Numbered from the stretch's first letter, positions 2,950 through 17,765 are shown. The stretch is DNA of 20,800 nucleotides from Promethearchaeota archaeon (GCA_019058015.1 JAHLWH010000070.1:1-20800), one strand, 5' to 3'. Notes: generated by a model from the sequence alone, not told the origin. Made by a program: numbers and translations.

Positions 2950-4446
2950 TTAATCAATTCGCTTTATATTAAATATGTGACCGCTCCATGCAGAAAGATC
3001 AATATAAAGACCATAAGTTTCAAGATCTTTGCCCTTATAGATATAACTTTTTTGTGTTAGTAAATCAGTAAAAAACCAATCATAAGTATCGTAATTTAGT
3101 TCTTCAATTCTAACATGTCCTTGTGCAGGATTTGGACTGTAATTCACAATTATAAGTTGATACAGTTCTTTGAACTTCCATTGATAAGAAATTAAATTAG
3201 TATATGTGTAATTTTCAGCATTTATGGGTTCAATTTTACAGAGATCCCATTTACCTTTTGTTAATTCCTCTACAGATGCAATACTTAATAAATTTTGATA
3301 AAGATCTAGGAGATCTTGGTTATTATCCTCAACTGGACGCCTTCCTAATTGAACCGGTATTTTTATTTTATACCCCTTCATTTGTCCTTCATGGACTAAT
3401 TTTGCACCAGGTAAAGTAAGACTGATAATTGCAGCTGCTCGAGAACGTTCTTCACCAAATGCCGTTATTGCCCTAAGTTCATCATGATTTTCAATAAAGC
3501 GTAAAAGTTTCCTTTGATAATCCCATTCTGCACGGAGATGACTATAAATCGTTTCAGCTCTCTCGTGCAGCATACGATCATACAACCGTTTATCATAGCA
3601 AAAATCAAATCCTTGTTGCTGTAATTCCCATTCCATATTCCAATATACTTCTGCAATAAATAAGAAGTTTGGAAATTTTTCTCTTACAACTGGAATCACT
3701 TCTTTCCAAAATTCTTTCTCTGGTTGAGGTCCCGCTCTTTCACCCCAAGTACGACTAAAAACATCATTAGTCATTAACATTGCCATATCACATCGAACTC
3801 CATCGCATAATTCAGCAATATTTAATAAGGTATTAATTGCTTTTTGACGTGCTTCCGAAGAAAATGCGTTTATTTGAATTGTATCCGTCCAAGGTGGAAA
3901 AAAATTAGGATCCTTTCCATGTGCGTAAATATGATCATTAGTACTAAAAAATTCAATTGGATGTGCTCTATAATCATCAATAGTTCCTTTTATGAATATA
4001 TCTGATTCTTCTAAAATCCAAGGGTGATCAACAGCTACATGATTTGGTACATAATCTAGTAATAAATGTATATTCCGTTCGGTTAATTGATCACGGAAAT
4101 TTTCTAAACCATCATCACCACCAAGATGATGATCTACGTAATAATTAAAGATAGAATAGGGCGACCCTACAACATCATCTGGCTTAAAATCACTTAAAGC
4201 TTTATGATATTCCTGTTGTAACCCTGGGTGGTTAAGAGCAATTTCTCTACTTTGAGGACTGCGTTCCCAGACACCCATAAGCCAAATAACATTGAAAAAT
4301 TTTAATTCTTGACTAAAAACTTCAGGAGGGATATTATTAAACGTAATTTCCTGTTTATAAATCTTTGATAAAGCTTGGAGCCAAGGCCAAGTATTTATTT
4401 CATAAATTCTAGGTTGTTCCTGCCAATCTACATTTTTAGTTCTCAT
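2950..4446 (-). CDS. GH13 alpha-amylase family glycosyl hydrolase
   Basis: DYVPNH, DGVRCDMA (nucleophile Asp), AEVYW (acid/base Glu), FIENHDE. Confidence 0.92.
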   Translation of the reverse strand: MRTKNVDWQEQPRIYEINTWPWLQALSKIYKQEITFNNIPPEVFSQELKFFNVIWLMGVWERSPQSREIALNHPGLQQEYHKALSDFKPDDVVGSPYSIFNYYVDHHLGGDDGLENFRDQLTERNIHLLLDYVPNHVAVDHPWILEESDIFIKGTIDDYRAHPIEFFSTNDHIYAHGKDPNFFPPWTDTIQINAFSSEARQKAINTLLNIAELCDGVRCDMAMLMTNDVFSRTWGERAGPQPEKEFWKEVIPVVREKFPNFLFIAEVYWNMEWELQQQGFDFCYDKRLYDRMLHERAETIYSHLRAEWDYQRKLLRFIENHDELRAITAFGEERSRAAAIISLTLPGAKLVHEGQMKGYKIKIPVQLGRRPVEDNNQDLLDLYQNLLSIASVEELTKGKWDLCKIEPINAENYTYTNLISYQWKFKELYQLIIVNYSPNPAQGHVRIEELNYDTYDWFFTDLLTQKSYIYKGKDLETYGLYIDLSAWSGHIFNIKRID

Positions 4447-4612
4447 ATTAAAATCATCTTTTAAATAAAAGTCAAATATTCTTCATAACATATCTCTTAG
4501 TCATAAAAATTATTAATCTGTTTTTATTTTAAAGAAAATAAGATAAAAATTATTTGCGAAAACCAATAAGAATTATAATAAATTTTAATTAAAATGATTT
4601 ATTTAAGGAATT

Positions 4613-4656
4613 ATCCTATGATTAATGAAAATATTATAGTATATTTGAAGGAGGTT
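4613..4656 (+). promoter_or_regulatory. Predicted tandem double kink-turn in the rpl7ae 5' leader, overlapping the GGAGG ribosome-binding site
   Basis: CC-UAU-GA-UU-AAU-GA-AAAUAU-(UAUAGU)-AUAUUU-GA-AG-GA-GG: two 3-nt bulges, each followed by tandem G.A/A.G pairs. Confidence 0.7.
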
Positions 4657-4666
4657 TTTTAAAAAA

Positions 4667-5035
4667 ATGAGTTATGTAAAAATTAATATACCTGACAAAT
4701 TAAAAAAAAAAGTAATTGATACAATTTCAAATGTTTCGAGCACTCCTGAAACAAAAATTAAAAAGGGAATGAATGAGGTTACTAAATCTATTGAACGAGG
4801 AATCGCCCGTCTGGTTATCATTGCTGAAGATGTAGATCCACCAGAAGTTGTCTTCCATTTACCCTTGCTCTGCGATGAGAAGAACATTCCATATATTTTT
4901 GTTAACACAAAAAAAGATTTGGGAAAAGCGGTGGGTTTAAAAATTGATACATCCTCTCTTGCGATAATTATACCTGGAGAAGATAATGAAGCCGCAATTA
5001 AAGATATTATCAGCCAAGTTAATAAATTAAAGTAG
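4667..5035 (+). CDS. rpl7ae: 50S ribosomal protein L7Ae
   Basis: IKKGMNEVTKSIERGIARLVIIAEDVDPPEVVFHLPLLCDEKNIPY. Confidence 0.97.
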   Translation: MSYVKINIPDKLKKKVIDTISNVSSTPETKIKKGMNEVTKSIERGIARLVIIAEDVDPPEVVFHLPLLCDEKNIPYIFVNTKKDLGKAVGLKIDTSSLAIIIPGEDNEAAIKDIISQVNKLK

Positions 5036-5055
5036 AAACATCAAGTTGAGATTTA

Positions 5056-5292
5056 TTGAGTAAAAGAGAAAAGGGTAAAGAAGGATATGTAGATCGATCC
5101 TTTCCAGCTCAGGTCATTCAGGTTGTTGGAAAGACTGGGATGACAGGGGAGATATTGCAAGTAAAGGTCAGGATCTTAGAAGGGCGAGATAAAAACAGAA
5201 TTCTAACTCGCAACGTTAAGGGACCAGTTCGTTTAGATGATATCGTTGTATTAAGGGAAGTTGAACGAGAAGCAAGGAAAATTAGAAGATAA
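5056..5292 (+). CDS. rps28e: 30S ribosomal protein S28e (TTG start)
   Basis: [42 protein letters not shown]; follows rpl7ae as usual in archaea. Confidence 0.96.
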
Positions 5293-5421
5293 AAATATTT
5301 ATTATTTGATTTAATTTTTTTAGTATCTTTTTTTTTATGAGATTTTATTTTAAATTCAAACAACTGTTTAATTTAATATTAATATCAACTTGAAAAAAAT
5401 ATAAAAATTAAAAAAAATATT

Positions 5422-5508
5422 ATTAATAGGGTGCTTCAGAATTATGAATTTTCAATTCTATTCCGTTGAAGCGATAAATCATTAATTCTAAAGCGCTCCG
5501 CTATTAAT
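5422..5508. repeat. Long imperfect inverted repeat between convergent rps28e and hsp20
   Basis: Nested arms ATTAATAG/CTATTAAT, GGTGCTT/AAGCGCT, AGAATTA/TAATTCT, TTCAA/TTGAA. Confidence 0.65.
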
Positions 5509-5524
5509 TTTATTAAAGATTCTA

Positions 5525-6025
5525 TTAATCGTTTCCCTCAGTATTTATGTCGATATTTTTTGCTGGCTTTTTTCCAATTTTTATTTCTAAAAGACCATTA
5601 GCCATTTTTGGTTTAACCAAGTTTTCATCTGCATCAGCTTGTAAGGGAATATCGAGATCGATATCCTTTTTACTCATCCATGAGAAAAAATCCATGAAAA
5701 ATGGTGCTCCATATACTCCAAAAGATTTTTTACTTTCATCACTCACACTTTCTTTCTCATCAGATTTTGTTCTTTTTGCAGTGACATTTAAATTTCTTCC
5801 AACAATTGAAACTTTAACATCGTCTTTAGTTAGTCCTGGCAAAGGAATAGTAATTAAATATTCATTTTCATGTTCTTGTATATCGTGAGGGACCCAGCCT
5901 TCAAATATTTTCATACCATATTTCATACCCTTAGAAATCATTCCCTTTAATCCTGCTATATCATGGGGAGAACATCGAAAATGGCTATGCCGAAATCGTG
6001 GATTAAAGCTTCCTTCAAAACACAT
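5525..6025 (-). CDS. Small heat-shock protein (Hsp20/alpha-crystallin family)
   Basis: YLITIPLPGLTKDDVKVSIVGRNLNVTA...VKPKMANGLLEIKI and a C-terminal IDI (IXI) motif. GAGG RBS upstream. Confidence 0.85.
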   Translation of the reverse strand: MCFEGSFNPRFRHSHFRCSPHDIAGLKGMISKGMKYGMKIFEGWVPHDIQEHENEYLITIPLPGLTKDDVKVSIVGRNLNVTAKRTKSDEKESVSDESKKSFGVYGAPFFMDFFSWMSKKDIDLDIPLQADADENLVKPKMANGLLEIKIGKKPAKNIDINTEGND

Positions 6026-6085
6026 ATTTTTTTTCCTCTTTTTTATTATTTCTACTTATTAAATTCATTTGATTTGCTTAAATTT

Positions 6086-6733
6086 CTAAAAATCTTCATC
6101 ATCATCGATAATTGGAATAACTCTTGTATGTTTTTCTCGTTCATTCTTGAGTTTCTCGAGAATCGATTTATATTTCTCTAATCTTTCATCAAGCATGTTA
6201 ATTCTATCTGTAAAGTGCTTTTTTTTCTCTTCTAATTCCTGGACAATACTTTGAATTCGTTCTATATTATCTGAAGTATAATCAGATTCGTCAATTTTTT
6301 TAGCATGTCTTGGAAATTCTGGAAATGTATAAGGAAAGCAAGAAAACATTTGTTCAAAATGTTTTTTACTTGGTATGGCCTTTAAAACTGTTTGAATATA
6401 ATCACCAAGCGTATCAATATTTGGTTGGAGATTATTTTCTAACACTTTTTTTAATCCTTCAATGCCCCTTTTGGTGATCCTATAAATTTTTTTTAATCTA
6501 TTATTTTCAGTTTTTTCCTCTATATCAACGAATTGTTGTTCTGCTAATCGATTTAAGAGTGGATAAATTGTACCGGATGAAGCTCTCCATACATTTTTAA
6601 ATTTTCTATTTATTTTTTGAATTATTTCATATCCAGAAATACCATCATTGTTCTTTATCATTGATAATACTAATATATCCAATCCTGATGAATGACCGCC
6701 GTGATATCCGCTGAATCTCTTGCCAAAAAACAT
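6086..6733 (-). CDS. PadR-family transcriptional regulator with C-terminal coiled coil
   Basis: ISGYEIIQKI...WRASSGTIYPLLNRL...KKIYRITKRG winged-helix signature. GGTGA RBS at 6745-6749. Confidence 0.9.
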   Translation of the reverse strand: MFFGKRFSGYHGGHSSGLDILVLSMIKNNDGISGYEIIQKINRKFKNVWRASSGTIYPLLNRLAEQQFVDIEEKTENNRLKKIYRITKRGIEGLKKVLENNLQPNIDTLGDYIQTVLKAIPSKKHFEQMFSCFPYTFPEFPRHAKKIDESDYTSDNIERIQSIVQELEEKKKHFTDRINMLDERLEKYKSILEKLKNEREKHTRVIPIIDDDEDF

Positions 6734-6790
6734 TTTTTTTTAATTCACCAATTTAAACAAATTATTAATCTATTCAAAATATATTTTTTT

Positions 6791-6818
6791 TTATATATAT
6801 CTGTTTAGATATATATAA
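6791..6818. promoter_or_regulatory. Perfect 12-bp inverted repeat, candidate PadR operator
   Basis: TTATATATATCT-GTTT-AGATATATATAA, about 58 nt upstream of padR in the divergent padR/SDR spacer. Confidence 0.55.
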
Positions 6819-6988
6819 TTCATAGAAAAACAGATATTTAAATGTATCGGAGACTGATATATTGGAAAGTGATATATTAAAAATATGTTATTTCATAAGA
6901 AAAAATAGGAAAATAATTTAATTCTAATAAAAAAATAATTTAAGTAATAAAACTGACATAATTAGTAATAAAAAATGAGAGATTATTT

Positions 6989-7792
6989 ATGAATTTAGGA
7001 TTGGAACGGAAGGTTGCTTTAGTTTTAGCATCAAGTAAGGGGTTAGGGTTAGCTTGTGCTAAAGGTCTTTATGAAGAAGGAGTAAATGTTGTGATTTGTA
7101 GTAGATCAATGGAGAATTTAGAAAAAGCAAAAAAAGAAATTGAACAAATTAAATCCATAATGAAAGGAAATAAAGTTATTTCGGTAGTTGCAGATTTATT
7201 GAAAGAGGGAGATATAAAGAATCTTGTTGATAAAGTTTTAGAAGAATTTGGGAGAATAGATATTTTAGTGCATAACGCTGGAGGTCCACCCTCGGGTCCA
7301 ATAAATAAAATTACTAAAGAAGAGTGGTTAAATTCTATTGATTTAAATTTACTTTCTTTTATTTGGATTACTCGAATGATATTACCAATAATGCAAAAGC
7401 AAAAATCAGGTAGGATAATAGCAATAACTTCAGTTTCAGTAAAACAGCCCTTAGAAAATTTGGTTTTATCAAATACAACTCGTCTTGGTATTGTTGGATA
7501 TGCAAAAACTCTTGCTAATGAGTATGCAAAAGATAATATTTTGGTAAATGTCGTATGTCCTGGGCCAAATTTAACAGATAGAATGAAGGAATTAATTAAT
7601 AGAACTATTAAAGAAACAGGAAAATCGGAAGTAGAAGTTAAAAAATCATGGACAAGCCAAATTCCCTTAGGTCGATTGGGAAAACCTGAAGAGTTTGCTA
7701 ATTTAGTCGTATTTTTAGCGTCTGAAAAGGCTAGTTATATAACCGGAACGGTTATTCAAGTAGATGGAGGTTTTGTAAAGGGACCTTTTTAA
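6989..7792 (+). CDS. SDR-family oxidoreductase (FabG-like, lacking canonical YxxxK)
   Basis: LASSKGLG, DILVHNAGGPP, SNTTR in place of YxxxK, ASYITGTVIQVDGG. Confidence 0.9.
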   Translation: MNLGLERKVALVLASSKGLGLACAKGLYEEGVNVVICSRSMENLEKAKKEIEQIKSIMKGNKVISVVADLLKEGDIKNLVDKVLEEFGRIDILVHNAGGPPSGPINKITKEEWLNSIDLNLLSFIWITRMILPIMQKQKSGRIIAITSVSVKQPLENLVLSNTTRLGIVGYAKTLANEYAKDNILVNVVCPGPNLTDRMKELINRTIKETGKSEVEVKKSWTSQIPLGRLGKPEEFANLVVFLASEKASYITGTVIQVDGGFVKGPF

Positions 7793-12797: not shown

Positions 12798-13301
12798 ATG
12801 AGTGATTTAGAAGGTCTTACAAGAAATTTACTTAAAAAACAAAATTCTAAAATTGAAATCATTGAAAGATTAAAGCAAGAATATCTTGATTACAAAAATA
12901 TATCTCCACAAAAGGCAGAATTATTATCAAATGCAATCTATGAGGAATGTGTAAAGAGTGATACAAATTCGATAAGAAATAAATTTATTAAAAATCTACT
13001 CGAAATTCCTACAGCTAATGTTTCAATTGGAAAACAAGGAGTTGGGCGTAGAGGTCTAGGAGATCTTTTTGTGCATAAATTAATAGCTGAGCTTTCTATT
13101 ACGAAAAGTAAGGCGTTCTTGGCGCCAACTTCTCTTGATGATGCTGGAGCAATTCAATTGGGGAATTATAGTGATTTCAGAGGAAGAGAATTTATCAGTT
13201 CGGATGTATTAATTGTTTCAAAAATGGAAGGTATCCACTCTCGATAAAGTGATTTCCCATTTATTTGTGGTTTTCATGTAACTCGCGCTGTCCTAAGAAA
13301 T
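12798..13301 (+). pseudogene. Truncated, intronless duplicate of the 5' third of the PurM/AIR-synthase-like gene
   Basis: Aligns with 15277-15800 (MSDLEGLTR, GKQGVG, SLDDAGA, VSKMEGIHSR). TAA at 13245-13247 replaces Leu (TTA in the other copy), then reads SDFPFICGFHVTRAVLRN, after which homology ends. Confidence 0.8.
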
Positions 13302-13304
13302 TGC

Positions 13305-15095
13305 TTGGATATTTCTATAGGTCAGTGTATAAAATTTCTTGAAATTGGAATGAATTATAATAATTCGTGTTCGCGAAAAAAATCAAAACGCGAGCAAAAC
13401 AAGACCTTTATAAACACTAAGGTAGATTTATATCAAAAAAAGAGTACTACAATGGTTAATGTAGTTAAAAAGATAGAAGATATTAATATAAAAAAATCTA
13501 AAACCTTAGATGATCACCAAAATGACATTGAAGATATCGTTATAAAAAAGAAAGGAAGAATAATTGGTAGTGAATGGAGGTATATTGGTAAAAACAAAAG
13601 AAAAACACCATATTTCCTCATAGAATGCAATAGAGGTTGCGGTTATGATTGCGATGAAAAACGTGAATTTTGGAGAGATAAATATGAGTTAAAACCCTCT
13701 AAACGGTACCCAGACGGGAAATGGTGTCCATATAAAATAATTAATAAATCTTTAATTCGTCACCAAAGGGAAATTGAAGATATTGTCAGAATGAAAGGAG
13801 GGAAAATTATTGATGCAAAATGGAGATATATAGGTAAGAATAGAGAGAAAAAACCATATTTCCTCATAGAATGTGGTGGTGATAACGAAAATAATGAAAA
13901 ACATCAATGGTGGGTTGAAAAATACAAATTAAAGGGAAATAAGAGTAATCCAGAGGGTACTTGGTGTAATCAATGTCCAAAAGGAAAAACTTTAGAAGAG
14001 CATCAAAAGGATATTGAAGATATTGTCAGAATGAAAGGAGGGAAAATTATTAATGCCAAATGGAGATATGATGAAAAAAATCGCAAATACCCTTATTTCT
14101 ACATAGAATGTGGAGGTGATAATGAATACAATATGACACACCAATTTTGGATTTATAAAAATGATTTAATACCAGATAAAACCCATCAAGTTGGTGTTTG
14201 GTGTCGAGAATGTCAAAGTAAAACCTTAGACCAACACCAAAACGACATTGAGGAATATACTAAGTGGAGGGGAGGAAAGATAATTGATAGTGAATGGAAA
14301 TGCGTATATCATGGAAAATATAAAGCTAAAATACCACATTTTTATATAGAATGCGATAATGAAGAGGAAAAACACAGGTGGTGGGTTGCTAAGGGTAACC
14401 TACTTCCTAAGGCAAGCAATCCAACAGGATCATGGTGTAAAGTATGTAATGATAGAATTAGAGCTGTTAGCGAATACGCTCATATTATTATCGAATATTA
14501 TAGTTTGATATATTTAAATTTAAAAAATTGTAATGGACGACATGAAGACATTCTTGATGAGGGATCTCGACCAGATCTCATTATTAACAGAGATGATAAT
14601 TTCAAGTCCAACATTGAACCTCATCAAAATATTATATCATTTTCAAATAATGTAGTTCTAACAAATATAGAAGAAATTGCTGTTGATTTTACGATGTCAT
14701 TAATTCCTTCTAATATTATAAGAAAATGCTTTAGAAATTATCAAAATAAAAAAAGGTATCTACTGATTGTATTAATACAAGAAGAGGGTATCGTAACTGC
14801 ACAATATATGCAAAATCTAATTAATAATGACGCAGAACTCGATAATGAAGAAAAGGAATTAATTAAGGTTATAAATTTTGATGAATATTTGCAATTTTTG
14901 AACTTAGAAATAAAATTGGATTTATTAAATTTTGATAAATGGAATTCTTTGTCCGAAAAGGAAAAAGAAATAATATCAATGTTCAGAAAAACAATTAAAT
15001 TGAGTATAGATGCTACTGAATCGAGTTTTGCTCTCAAAGAACTAATAAAATTAAGTGAAAAAAACGGTAAATTACTCGGAATTGAAAATCATTAG
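13305..15095 (+). CDS. Protein with four tandem zinc-ribbon-like repeats and a putative PD-(D/E)XK-like C-terminal domain (true start uncertain)
   Basis: Repeats K(T/S)LxxHQxxIE...GxII...W...(F)xIEC...HxW/FW...GxWCxxC; C-terminal RHE...SRPDLII...IAVDFT. Confidence 0.7.
   Translation: MDISIGQCIKFLEIGMNYNNSCSRKKSKREQNKTFINTKVDLYQKKSTTMVNVVKKIEDINIKKSKTLDDHQNDIEDIVIKKKGRIIGSEWRYIGKNKRKTPYFLIECNRGCGYDCDEKREFWRDKYELKPSKRYPDGKWCPYKIINKSLIRHQREIEDIVRMKGGKIIDAKWRYIGKNREKKPYFLIECGGDNENNEKHQWWVEKYKLKGNKSNPEGTWCNQCPKGKTLEEHQKDIEDIVRMKGGKIINAKWRYDEKNRKYPYFYIECGGDNEYNMTHQFWIYKNDLIPDKTHQVGVWCRECQSKTLDQHQNDIEEYTKWRGGKIIDSEWKCVYHGKYKAKIPHFYIECDNEEEKHRWWVAKGNLLPKASNPTGSWCKVCNDRIRAVSEYAHIIIEYYSLIYLNLKNCNGRHEDILDEGSRPDLIINRDDNFKSNIEPHQNIISFSNNVVLTNIEEIAVDFTMSLIPSNIIRKCFRNYQNKKRYLLIVLIQEEGIVTAQYMQNLINNDAELDNEEKELIKVINFDEYLQFLNLEIKLDLLNFDKWNSLSEKEKEIISMFRKTIKLSIDATESSFALKELIKLSEKNGKLLGIENH
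13500..14447 (+). repeat. Four intragenic tandem repeats of about 78-82 codons
   Basis: Units start at 13500, 13746, 13986 and 14220. Units 2 and 3 share the exact 39-mer ATTGAAGATATTGTCAGAATGAAAGGAGGGAAAATTATT. Confidence 0.9.
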
Positions 15096-15276
15096 ACTTA
15101 TTTAATTTCTCAACATTGATGTAAGTAGAACTTTAAACATCTTCAGAAAAGGATGCAGCGATGATTTTATATAAAATATACTGATATTATTTAACATTTT
15201 GTTGAGCAATATATTTTATAACCCTATAATTTAATATAATTAATATTGATTTATATGTTTATTATAGGTTTTAATC

Positions 15277-16704
15277 TTGAGTGATTTAGAAGGTTTGACA
15301 AGAAGGTTAATGGAGAAAAGTTTCAATAAGGAACAGATAATTATACGCCTTGTTAATGAATATATGGATTTTAAAGAGATTGAGAAAGAGTCCGCAATCT
15401 TGCTTGCTGAAGCAATCTATGAGGAATGTAAAAATAGTGATATAAAGTCCATTTCAGATCCTTTTATGAGATATTTATTAGATATTAATATGGCAAACGT
15501 GACTATTGGAAAACAAGGAGTGGGTTGTAGAGGAGCAGGTGATTTTTTTGTGCATAAACTCATTGCAAAGTTATCTGAGACCGAGAAAAAAGCGTATTTA
15601 TCACCTAGTTCTTTAGATGATGCCGGTGCTGTGAGATTATCTGATATTAAAGGATTTGAAACAAAAGATGATTTAATCATTGTATCTAAAATGGAAGGGA
15701 TTCATAGTCGCTTAAGCGATTTTCCATTTATGTGCGGTTTTCACGTAATTTCACGTAACACGTTTATGTGAAGCGTAACGAGGGCTGCACTTCGAGACTT
15801 ATATGTAAAGGGAGCAAAACCTATCTCCATAATGATTGATACGCATTTGGGTGATGATGCTGATGTTGGAAAACTTTTTGATTTTATGGCTGGTATCTCG
15901 ACAATTTCCGAATTAACTAATGTTCCTATAACTGCAGGGTCTACTTTAAGAATTGGGGGTGATATGGTAATTGGAGATCGGCTTGTGGGGGGAATAGCTG
16001 CAGTAGGGGTGTGTAAAAGAATTTTAGCTCGACGAAATATAATTCCCGGCAATAAAATATTAATGACTGAAGGAGCTGGAGGGGGAACGATCACAACTAC
16101 TGCGATTTATTCAGGTAATCATGAGGTTGTTAAAGAAACCCTGAATATTAAATTCTTAAAAGCATGTGAGAAACTGTTGACTTCTGATTACACAGATAAG
16201 ATCCATTGCATGTGTGATGTGACTAATGGAGGTTTGAGAGGAGATTTATATGAGATTAATTATGAAGCAAAATGTGGAGTATTAATTCAAGAAAAAAAAG
16301 TAAAAAAATTGGTGAATCCCAGAGTCTTAGATCTTCTAAATAAAACGGGAGTAGATTATTTAGGTGTATCGTTAGATTCACTCTTGATATATTGTGATGA
16401 AAACATCAGCGAAGATATAATCAATGACTTAAAGGATATTGATATTAAATGTTCTGAAATTGGTCTTGTTGATGATTCAAATGAAGTGAAATTTATATTT
16501 ACAGATAAAAAGTCTGCAACAATTCTTCCAAGATTTAGAGAATCTGCTTACACTAAAATAAAAAAGCAGATTGGAGAAAAAACTCCTGAGGATTACAAAG
16601 AAATGGAAATAATGGTCAATGCTGCTGCAAAAAAAGCTCTAAATAAAAGAAAAGAAATTCTAGATTATATTATTTCAAATTTAAACAGACAAATAAAATT
16701 ATGA
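15277..16704 (+). CDS. PurM/AIR-synthase-like (HypE/SelD/ThiL superfamily) protein, join(15277..15748,15779..16704), 465 aa after splicing
   Basis: The ORF-track pieces 15277-15771 and 15832-16704 are in the same frame. Motifs DDAGAV, EGIHSRLSDFPF, GFHV|TRAALRDLYVKGAKP, GSTLRIGGDMVIGDR, CDVTNGGLRGD. Confidence 0.9.
15749..15778 (+). other. Predicted 30-nt BHB intron in a protein-coding gene
   Basis: 11-bp outer helix, 4-bp central helix ACGU/GCGU, 3-nt bulges AAU and AAC, 9-bp inner helix. Contains an in-frame TGA, and its removal restores H-V-T-R. Confidence 0.88.
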
Positions 16705-17765
16705 ACTATTTTACTAAATATGACCTAATAAATAGTTTAGAAGGATGTATATCGTACATAGAATTAAATTATAACGAAGGCACGGTTGTTGTTTCTGAAT
16801 ATGGTGCGCGAGTATTAGGTATATTTCCAAAAAAGGAATGTATTAATCTTCTATGGGTTAATCCTTTAATAAAAGATCTTATTACTAAAAACGAGTGGAA
16901 TATTGGCGGTGATCGCTACTGGATTAGTCCTGAGAGGTTATTTTTCTATAAAAGTCCTGAATCGTGGGAAAGTTGGTTTTGTCCTGAAGGACTCGATCCT
17001 GCAGATTTTAAAATAACATCTTCTTCCAACACAAGTTGTCTTATAACTTCAGATATTTCTTTAACTAATCAATTAAATAAAAAAACTTATAATGGTAAAA
17101 TAAAGCGATACATTTCACTGGTTAAGGAACCAATTAGTACTGGAGTTGCCTATTGTGGGATTCAATATTTAGACGATTGTACACTTTTCGCACCCGATCT
17201 ACAAATTAACGGTTGGACTTTAACTCAGATAATATCGGGCAGTACGGAGAATCCTGGAACTGTGTTAATTCCAACTAAGAAAAATCCAAAACCTCAATCC
17301 TATTTTAGAACCATTCCAAACGACCGTATAAAAATAATGGATACATATGTGGCGTTCAAAATTGATGTTGATGACATCTATAAACTCGGAATTCGACCAG
17401 AAGATATTGATTTAAAGCGAGCAGCAAAAATTGGTTACATTTTAAAAATTCCAAATTCAGAAGATCATTTTTTTATAGTTAAGGTTTCTTTTGATATTGC
17501 TGAATCTCAAGAACAATGCTTTGATATATCCAGAGATCACCCTAATGCTGAAATTGGAGTAATTCAATCCTATAACGCTGAATCTCCAGATAAAAGTAAT
17601 CTCATGTTCGGTGAAATAGAACTACAATTAAAGCCCTTCAAAACCGTCAACCAAAAATCTCAAGGATTTGCTAAACATCAATTATTTGGATATCTTGGCA
17701 CAAAAGAAGAAATTCTAAATGTTGTTGAAAAATATCTCGGAATTATAAACCCAAAACTATTTTAA
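16701..17765 (+). CDS. Uncharacterised protein, possibly DUF6786/galactose-mutarotase-like fold
   Basis: 354-aa ORF with YGARVLG and WNIGGDRYWISPE; ATGA overlap with the upstream stop suggests translational coupling. Family assignment is tentative. Confidence 0.6.
   Translation: MNYFTKYDLINSLEGCISYIELNYNEGTVVVSEYGARVLGIFPKKECINLLWVNPLIKDLITKNEWNIGGDRYWISPERLFFYKSPESWESWFCPEGLDPADFKITSSSNTSCLITSDISLTNQLNKKTYNGKIKRYISLVKEPISTGVAYCGIQYLDDCTLFAPDLQINGWTLTQIISGSTENPGTVLIPTKKNPKPQSYFRTIPNDRIKIMDTYVAFKIDVDDIYKLGIRPEDIDLKRAAKIGYILKIPNSEDHFFIVKVSFDIAESQEQCFDISRDHPNAEIGVIQSYNAESPDKSNLMFGEIELQLKPFKTVNQKSQGFAKHQLFGYLGTKEEILNVVEKYLGIINPKLF

Follow-up and report, generated by a model that had tools for sequence, protein, structure and literature searches.

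How bulge-helix-bulge (BHB) introns, the tRNA-type introns of archaea, arrive at new sites is an open question; a 2026 preprint found no general route, and the arrival of Asgard tRNA introns remains open. A locus in a genome of a Promethearchaeota archaeon bears on this question. The window analyzed here is a stretch of 20,800 nucleotides (nt) (GCA_019058015.1, JAHLWH010000070.1:1-20800), in which a 5' fragment of a PurM-like gene, a free-standing nuclease-like gene, and a complete, intron-bearing copy of the same PurM-like gene follow one another. Our analysis supports the view that the nuclease-like gene, a foreign first exon, and a 30-nt BHB intron travel as a cassette, which we propose, by analogy with phage systems and at a probability of about 0.6, to be an archaeal form of collaborative homing.

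Four open reading frames (ORFs) cover the locus, all on the plus strand; the third and fourth are a single gene (15277-16704) split by 30 in-frame nt that contain a TGA.

12798-13247, plus strand: 149-codon ORF
13305-15095, plus strand: long ORF, 596 amino acids from an upstream TTG
15277-15771, plus strand: 164-codon ORF
15832-16704, plus strand: 290-codon ORF

Read against related genomes and metagenome contigs, these ORFs resolve into the following parts.

12798-13281, plus strand: resident "A-type" exon 1, evidently a pseudogene (Cys-to-Arg change in GVGCRG and stop codon TAA at 13245-13247); copy 1
13282-13303, plus strand: degenerate start (~20 nt) of the resident exon 2, then the probable left junction of the inserted DNA
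13452-15095, plus strand: free-standing nuclease-like gene, 547 amino acids from an ATG
13500-14456, plus strand: four Cys/His repeats of ~80 amino acids, putative zinc DNA-binding modules
14451-15092, plus strand: C-terminal domain, putative PD-(D/E)xK-type nuclease of an unnamed family
15196-15276, plus strand: cassette-borne upstream region, probable B-type promoter and leader (homology to B-type upstream DNA)
15277-15748, plus strand: apparently foreign "B-type" exon 1, TTG start, 157 codons; with exon 2, copy 2
15749-15778, plus strand: predicted 30-nt BHB (tRNA-type) intron with an in-frame TGA
15732-15790, plus strand: predicted hBHBh' splicing motif (minimum-free-energy fold)
15779-15891, plus strand: start of exon 2, probably brought by the cassette as a co-converted tract (maximum chi-square breakpoint)
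15892-16704, plus strand: resident part of exon 2 with the AIRS_C domain (Pfam, 4.2e-11; identity to sister genomes)

An earlier reading of this DNA (the original prediction) had described an intronless, diverged 5' copy with its intron-equivalent site at 13281/13282, a nonsense codon, GVGRRGLGDL in place of GVGCRGAGDF, and homology lost about 20 nt past the site, followed by an ORF and then by the complete intron-containing gene. This description stands. The site is correctly placed because the direct repeat between the two copies (D6) ends exactly there, at 13281 (...CATGTAA) in copy 1 and at 15748 (...CACGTAA) in copy 2. The nonsense codon is the TAA at 13245-13247, both GVG readings are present, and past 13281 13 of 21 bases (counted by eye) still match the intronless allele of a sister genome, G004, before similarity is lost. 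The ORF (13305-15095) and the complete gene with its 30-nt insert follow as described. The coordinates also hold, with two corrections: the ORF start moves to the ATG at 13452, and the BHB cleavage rule sets the intron at 15749-15778. Here and below, G numbers denote genomes, G000 being that of the window itself (metagenome-assembled, 3.84 Mb, 283 contigs, 94% complete), and L054 to L060 are metagenome contigs. Genus g1 includes G000, G001, G002, and G004; G001 and G004 are intronless and G002 is intron-bearing.

The insert folds as expected of a spliced intron. The minimum-free-energy structure of 15725-15800 (-25.2 kcal/mol, z -3.78, with none of 200 shuffles as good) has an outer helix of 11 bp (15732-15742 with 15780-15790), a central helix of 4 bp (15743-15746 with 15773-15776), 3-nt bulges on opposite strands (AAU at 15747-15749 and AAC at 15777-15779), and a 9-bp inner hairpin (15750-15772), an arrangement that we take to match a tRNA intron in the canonical position. 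If each bulge is cut behind its second base (AA/U ... AA/C, with the slash at the cut), 15749-15778 are excised, and removal of these 30 nt yields GFHV/TRAAL, the sequence present in the 16 of 20 aligned orthologues that are intronless. The structure is retained elsewhere: 12 of 13 intron-bearing alleles give hBHBh' as their own minimum, the remaining allele (G022) having a relaxed 5' bulge. In an alignment of the 13 alleles, 97.7% of cells are paired, falling to 34-53% when the partner is slid by 1-3 columns. Compensatory changes occur at four pairs, three of them in the intron hairpin, and none of 500 shuffles reaches the covariation score, a count that is no probability since the sequences are related. 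The genome encodes two EndA-family genes (PF01974) and one RtcB (PF01139), all above curated cut-offs.

The intron opens with 10 nt (TTTCACGTAA, 15749-15758) that are an exact repeat of the 10 nt closing exon 1 (15739-15748), and it ends in GCGTAA. Because CGTAA stands at both borders, these can be drawn at several equivalent positions. There are hints in this arrangement that the intron may have originated as a local duplication plus a hairpin.

A covariance model (R1) built from the 13-allele alignment was run on 135 genomes of the family. It finds a 79- to 80-nt match at 75 bits or more in 28 genomes, which are counted as intron-bearing; the remaining matches span only 50 nt of DNA at no more than 42 bits and represent the intronless state. 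The intron-bearing species representatives lie in 6 of 13 genera, and the insert is 30 nt long in 20 of the 28 and 29 nt long in 8. A 29-nt insert shifts the frame, so the gene is unreadable without splicing. These eight inserts, together with an internal stop that is TGA in some alleles and TAA in others, exclude an intein, read-through of TGA, and selenocysteine as readings of the insert. We infer that the 30-nt insert is a spliced BHB intron.

The same data bear on the alternative that the insert is not spliced, so that the gene is split, dead, or read through at TGA and the duplication is a decaying tandem duplication. As this alternative would have it, 20 of the 28 carriers keep the insert in frame. 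We nevertheless regard it as very unlikely, given the BHB structure with its compensatory changes, the 29-nt versions in 8 genomes, which cannot be read through, and the variable stop codon; moreover, each half of the gene is strongly conserved from genus to genus, and the insert falls inside the AIRS_N domain. Nor is a tandem duplication indicated, because copy 1 is native to the genus and copy 2 is foreign, as described below. For annotation, the consequence is that the gene is called as two ORFs, and that its halves lie in different frames in eight genomes.

One metagenome-assembled genome, G129, has three alleles on separate contigs (C55, C113, and C199). One is apparently intron-bearing (in-frame TGA, R1 match of 90.6 bits), and the other two have neither an in-frame stop nor a strong R1 match. 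This suggests coexistence of the alleles in one community, or a mixed bin.

Copy 1 is related to the working gene at a distance: it is 63% identical in amino acids to residues 1-158 of the full gene (E 1.8e-57), with one internal TAA. It is 95% identical to the corresponding region of G004 and 92% identical to that of G001, both intronless members of the same genus, and groups with them in exon-1 trees with Shimodaira-Hasegawa-like approximate likelihood ratio test (SH-aLRT) support of 99-100. The native 190-nt spacer between the RFAP synthase gene and copy 1 is retained. On these comparisons, copy 1 is the genus's own exon 1, now a pseudogene.

An independent metagenome contig, L054, carries the parts in identical order, TAA included, with proteins 96-97% identical to those of the window, and the arrangement is for that reason not an assembly artifact, as the original prediction had asked to have confirmed. 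A chimera of two strains' alleles might otherwise be suspected, since the genome is in 283 contigs and the three G129 alleles on separate contigs show that such bins can mix strains; however, five sequences (L054, L059, L060, G104, and G093) each carry a remnant, an insert, and the B-type gene on a single contig, which leaves this explanation scarcely credible. The TAA in copy 1 and a TAG between copy 1 and the ORF in L054 also exclude a single in-frame fusion protein made of the two.

The first exon of the working gene has a different history. Flanking genes of G000 are 95-99% identical in amino acids to those of G004, and exon 2 is 92-93% identical to that of G004 and G001; exon 1 of copy 2 is only 62% identical to the same two. 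It is much more similar to alleles from other genera, namely L055 (90%) and G024 (83%), and the RFAP synthase of L055 is only 58% identical to that of the window. Maximum chi-square analysis places the change against G004 at 15679 (250 of 402 positions identical, 62%, to the left and 888 of 972, 91%, to the right; p 1.6e-35) and the opposite change against L055 at 15891 (551 of 614, 90%, and 540 of 781, 69%; p 2e-21), these p values being uncorrected for the choice of breakpoint; the breakpoint at 15891 is also found against L058. In agreement, G000 differs from G004, G001, and G002 up to ~15845-15880 and is at least 95% identical to all three from ~15860 to ~16570.

Trees of the two parts differ in the same way. 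The exon-1 tree (49 rows) contains a B-type clade of 19 rows (SH-aLRT 99) that spans genera g1, g2, and g11 and six metagenome alleles, with the displaced copies outside it; eight of the 28 intron genomes (G046, G051, G054, G058, G076, G100, G122, and G129) are not on this tree. For exon 2, the window and the four further alleles of its genus form one group (SH-aLRT 100). The working gene is, by this mosaic of identities, composed of a foreign exon 1 and a foreign start of exon 2 joined to a resident remainder. The original prediction had proposed just such a recombination near the intron site of a segment carrying the nuclease-like gene and an intron-bearing 5' end, and separate trees for the 5' copies and the 3' portion as the way to examine it; a native copy 1 beside an exon 1 of a foreign clade bears the proposal out.

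The nuclease-like gene accompanies this foreign exon. A scan of genome contigs for close relatives of the ORF found none; a scan of metagenomes yielded 10 loci with orthologues at 69-96% identity. B-type exon 1 directly follows the orthologue in 8 of the 8 loci that reach far enough, and the 30-nt insert is present in all 7 that reach the site (two end too early), so that an ORF is accompanied by the intron allele wherever the contig allows this to be seen; the converse does not hold, as shown below. The DNA of the metagenome loci resembles the window over 13480/13490-15085 and 15196-15893, which sets the extent of the cassette; it would be ~2.4 kb, roughly from 13452/13480 to 15891. The segment 15196-15276 shares no homology with the native spacer; its homologues lie upstream of the B-type alleles of G024 and L055-L059. 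The start codon of the working copy is TTG in the window (15277) and ATG in G002 and in copy 1.

Remnants of a displaced exon 1 occur at several loci.

G000 and L054: remnant runs through the intron site and ~20 nt beyond
L059: remnant runs up to the site (...CACGTAA)
G104: remnant runs through the site and ~27 nt beyond (reading ...GFHVTRACLRDL, then diverging)
G093: remnant of 111 codons
L060: remnant of 38 codons
L055: remnant of 46 nt

Different DNA follows each full-length remnant: ~170 nt and then the ORF in G000; the 3' part of a 189-codon gene, which precedes the ORF in L057, and then the ORF in L059; and ~1.8 kb of AT-rich DNA in G104. The three remnants are also of different sequence types and thus mark independent events. 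At least three independent arrivals, with breaks 0 to ~27 nt past the intron site, are evident at these loci, and the displacement of an old 5' end, as originally envisaged, is seen at or just past the site in all three. The amount of donor DNA copied varies between events, as L057 and L059 indicate: L057 has a radical SAM gene and two unknown genes 5' of its nuclease-like gene (3913-5939), and L059 has, between remnant and ORF, only the 3' part of the last of these extra genes (823-1221).

A partial duplication around inserted DNA is also typical of a single crossover, and a circular plasmid or virus carrying the ORF and part of the gene could have integrated in Campbell fashion through shared sequence. 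The radical SAM protein gene and two unknowns that precede the ORF in L057, and the 3' part of one of them kept in L059, would suit such an element. However, a crossover at or beyond +110 nt, which the foreign first 110 nt of exon 2 in the working copy would require, predicts remnants that extend no less far, and the remnants stop at 0 to +27; the extent of the inserted DNA differs at each locus; and no integrase, att-like repeat, or terminal repeat was seen at the locus. This explanation is improbable. The original prediction had likewise reported no terminal repeats or transposase, and our searches agree: no transposase family is matched in Pfam, no terminal inverted repeats are convincing, and such inverted repeats as occur are weak, AT-rich, and away from the junctions.

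Elsewhere the B-type allele cleanly adjoins the RFAP synthase gene (G002, G092, and G083). In G002 the native spacer gives way to B-type sequence inside the first ~20 coding nt, at a position where the two copies of the window have 16 identical bases in common. Deletion between the two copies in a G000-like ancestor would give the G002 arrangement.

What, then, does the middle gene encode? It probably begins at the ATG at 13452, since in L054 the TAG interrupts the open frame that continues from copy 1. Its N-terminal part has four repeats of ~80 residues (direct repeat family D1, with a DNA period of 234-246 nt), each with a Cys...His...Cys-x2-Cys pattern whose Cys and His are invariant in six orthologues. 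These repeats have no Pfam match in the window protein, DUF4379 and DUF723 included; the equivalent region of a paralogue in G006 matches DUF4379 (1.4e-8), DUF723 (3.4e-6), and PHROG families named endonuclease.

The C-terminal domain gives a confident AlphaFold2 (AF2) model (predicted local distance difference test score, pLDDT, 92.6) with secondary structure H19-42, E47-49, E61-64, E93-99, H104-110, and E120-126. The best structural matches of its core, at weak scores, are nucleases: the Can2 nuclease domain and AF1548 (both Z 6.8), with BsaWI, BspD6I, PspGI, McrC, BglII, and Cfr10I among the others (Z 5.3-6.8 overall). Foldseek, with E-values of 0.016 or above, returns the R2 retrotransposon endonuclease, EcoO109I, MspJI, and HindIII. 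Residues E50, D60, and D97 are invariant and H29, E33, T99, and K110 nearly so; D60 lies just before strand 2 (RPD in the consensus), D97 in strand 3, and K110 on the next helix, so that the conserved acidic residues are ordered as in the PD-(D/E)xK fold. Among 1.84 billion cluster representatives the domain has 72 relatives; where these are full-length, all but one (P0006) have the match at or close to the C-terminus. A PadR match of the ORF (7.4e-5) is far below the cut-off and was disregarded. The middle gene is thus plausibly a putative PD-(D/E)xK-type nuclease.

The protein is maintained by purifying selection, as the ratios of nonsynonymous to synonymous substitution (dN/dS) of 0.18-0.32 in all 15 pairs of six orthologues indicate; in L055 the gene is broken in two. 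The wider family is patchy and multi-copy: 10 of 41 related genomes have members, as many as 4 each, and all of these lie at other loci. The closest paralogue (G147:C29, 41-54% identical) is at an unrelated locus, not beside a PurM-like gene.

Eleven paralogue loci were checked for flanking duplications, and only one, G009:C78 (L069), was positive. There an ORF (5794-7626) lies between 84-nt duplicates (5501-5585 and 7667-7751) that represent the 3' end of a convergent neighbor gene (82% amino acid identity over 28 codons). It looks as if a new gene end came in with a cassette and took the place of the old one, by the same principle and with no intron.

Several observations weigh against a nuclease-driven cassette, the first of them concerning the protein. 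The nuclease assignment is weak, all structural Z-scores being below 8 and all Foldseek E-values at least 0.016; the ORF has no significant family in Pfam, PHROGs, NCBIfam, or PADLOC; a profile search of PDB sequences with it gives no match at E ≤ 5; and the ESM Atlas holds no usable match for the C-terminal domain. The AF2 model of the N-terminal repeats is mediocre (pLDDT 70), and Foldseek finds for them no PDB match, only unrelated rows of low probability. The lysine position of the (D/E)xK motif is occupied by T99; relocated lysines occur in some members of the PD-(D/E)xK superfamily. In the trees, an approximately unbiased (AU) test does not reject a grouping of all seven exon-1 copies of genus g1 (p 0.205). 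We attribute this to the low power left by a long A-type branch and 161 columns, and for that reason the horizontal origin of exon 1 is argued from the identity mosaic.

The remaining points concern distribution. An orthologue of the ORF (E ≤ 1e-40) is present in only one of the 28 intron-bearing representatives, G000 itself, so that intron and B-type exon mostly occur without it. The original prediction had held that an intron widespread in relatives lacking the ORF would speak against it; taken literally, that is what was found, in 27 of 28. In G104 and G093 the duplication encloses 2-4 kb of other DNA, in which tblastn even at E ≤ 10 finds no trace of the ORF. At least nine intron alleles (G007, G020, G022, G045, G053, G087, G134, G136, and G137) have an exon 1 that is not B-type, and the intron is therefore not tied to this cassette. 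One further allele, in G081 (L087, G081:C1, 5901-7268), combines a B-type 5' part of exon 1 with a native-type, intronless intron-site region; it looks like a product of recombination between alleles with and without the intron.

These observations invite a simpler account, in which the B-type 5' allele and its intron spread by ordinary transfer and recombination and the ORF, whether selfish or regulatory, merely hitchhikes. The 27 carriers without the ORF, the ORF-less duplications of G104 and G093, the G081 recombinant, and the weak nuclease fold would all be at home in it. It leaves unexplained why three independent remnants break within ~27 nt of the intron site, why the ORF stands directly 5' of a B-type allele in 8 of 8 loci with no other orthologue (E ≤ 1e-40) in the 135 genomes, why it is under purifying selection, and why its relatives behave like mobile nuclease genes. 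We consider spread without a nuclease unlikely.

Homing genes usually pass through invasion, fixation, decay, and loss. The rarity of the ORF among intron carriers fits loss of a nuclease after invasion, and it lowers confidence in the ORF as the driver. The ORF-less carriers, the ORF-less duplications, the introns with other first exons, and G081 fit the homing life cycle, a nuclease acting in trans, or no nuclease equally well.

If the cassette is mobile, its parts suggest how it would move. It would be a selfish element made up of an endonuclease gene, a promoter with a foreign first exon, the 30-nt BHB intron, and ~110 nt of exon 2. The nuclease would recognize conserved sequence across the insertion site of an intronless allele and break it 0-30 bp downstream. 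The exon-2 end would then be resected by ~100 nt and invade a cassette-bearing donor, and copying would run leftward through the intron, exon 1, and the nuclease gene. The left end would find no partner to pair with, since the resident first exon and that of the donor share just ~62% identity, and would be joined illegitimately, leaving the old exon 1 as a dead upstream copy. Later recombination between conserved 5' ends, or a deletion, would remove the remnant and the nuclease gene and give clean alleles such as that of G002. The intron would split the nuclease target and so protect carriers, and EndA and RtcB of the host would remove it from the mRNA, so that the gene could stay functional.

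Remnants that end 0-27 nt past the site on the left, a foreign tract that reaches ~110 nt into exon 2, and a variable amount of donor DNA on the left fit a break just downstream of the site. That the product of the middle gene makes this break, and that the intron protects its carriers, may be supposed from the phage analogy. The sequences themselves show the anatomy of the locus, the fold and covariation of the intron, the linkage of the parts, the mosaic ancestry of the gene, the clustering of breakpoints, and purifying selection on the nuclease-like gene. From these we infer that the nuclease is active and what it targets, that the intron protects carriers and is spliced in vivo, and how the break is repaired.

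The nearest known system is collaborative homing in cyanophage S-PM2, where the gene for the free-standing F-CphI lies next to psbA, a gene that contains an intron (Zeng, Bonocora and Shub 2009, via PMC6083498). Both have a nuclease or nuclease-like gene outside the intron and beside an intron-bearing gene, with parts that appear to move together; in both the proposed target is the intronless allele at the insertion site, and the intron is proposed to be protective. The differences are that the psbA intron is a self-splicing group I intron and the present one a 30-nt BHB intron, predicted to be protein-spliced; that the host there is a phage and here a cellular Asgard archaeon with a different, unnamed nuclease-like family whose cleavage is putative; and that here a whole foreign exon travels and old exons remain as fossils.

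Phage T4 has free-standing homing endonucleases such as mobE (PMC2790892). Like the present gene as we propose it to act, these are intergenic nuclease genes that spread by a double-strand break in a conserved neighbor with co-conversion of flanking DNA; unlike here, repair is two-sided and homologous between close phages, is not known to leave a duplicated gene fragment, and involves no BHB intron. The seg genes and the MobA/gene 60 cassette of phage T4 are further free-standing examples. Among archaea, BHB introns of crenarchaeal rRNA genes (the I-DmoI type) encode an endonuclease and home at the DNA level, with a LAGLIDADG gene within a long intron. Unlike these, the intron described here is 30 nt long and lacks an ORF, the nuclease-like gene is outside it, and the host gene encodes a protein. 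A BHB intron in the cbf5 pre-mRNA of Crenarchaeota (Yokobori et al. 2009, PMC2738675) is in another gene and another phylum, and the available part of that report describes no nuclease gene or exon-replacement scar. Searches of open-access papers and preprints found no report of an Asgard protein gene carrying a BHB intron, nor any of a cassette that unites such an intron with a free-standing nuclease.

The host gene belongs to the PurM superfamily and is present in 120 of the 135 species representatives of the family. The intronless G004 orthologue matches AIRS (1.2e-7) and AIRS_C (2.2e-11) in Pfam; NCBIfam matches (ThiL, HypE, and SelD) are all far below cut-offs. By Pfam matches, the surrounding gene cluster resembles one for pterin (methanopterin-type) cofactor biosynthesis, in the order DUF447 gene, U32 peptidase, archaeal dihydroneopterin aldolase, GHMP-kinase-type gene (the RFAP synthase), and PurM-superfamily gene.

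In a more distant family, the exon-1 region of L043 (G032:C1, 7143-7739) is ~126 nt longer and contains a TAA, and in G031:C137 a TGA falls somewhere within the match to the PurM-like gene; either may reflect a further insert at a different site. The locus has a second feature that varies by presence and absence, a DUF6786 gene (16701-17765) 3' of the PurM-like gene, which is present in G000 and G001, absent from G004 and L054, where an M20 peptidase gene directly follows the PurM-like gene, and not found after the PurM-like gene in G002.

A wider claim, to which we give slightly less than even odds, is that free-standing nuclease cassettes are a general DNA-level route of tRNA-type introns into Asgard protein genes, that the nuclease founds a new homing-endonuclease family with a divergent PD-(D/E)xK core behind Cys/His fingers, and that one-ended repair swaps exons between genera and leaves datable fossil exons. 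The locus adds a probable BHB intron within a gene that encodes a protein to those of Asgard archaea and appears to record how such an intron arrived, with the exon that was displaced, the one imported together with the intron, the candidate nuclease, and the position of the break all still visible; the same cassette, more or less decayed, is found in several genera. The nuclease may represent a new homing-endonuclease family with a modular zinc-finger array, and such enzymes are useful for genome engineering. Nuclease-driven homing would be one route by which BHB introns enter archaeal protein genes and, if true, a working example, from the closest prokaryotic relatives of eukaryotes, of exon shuffling that goes hand in hand with intron gain.

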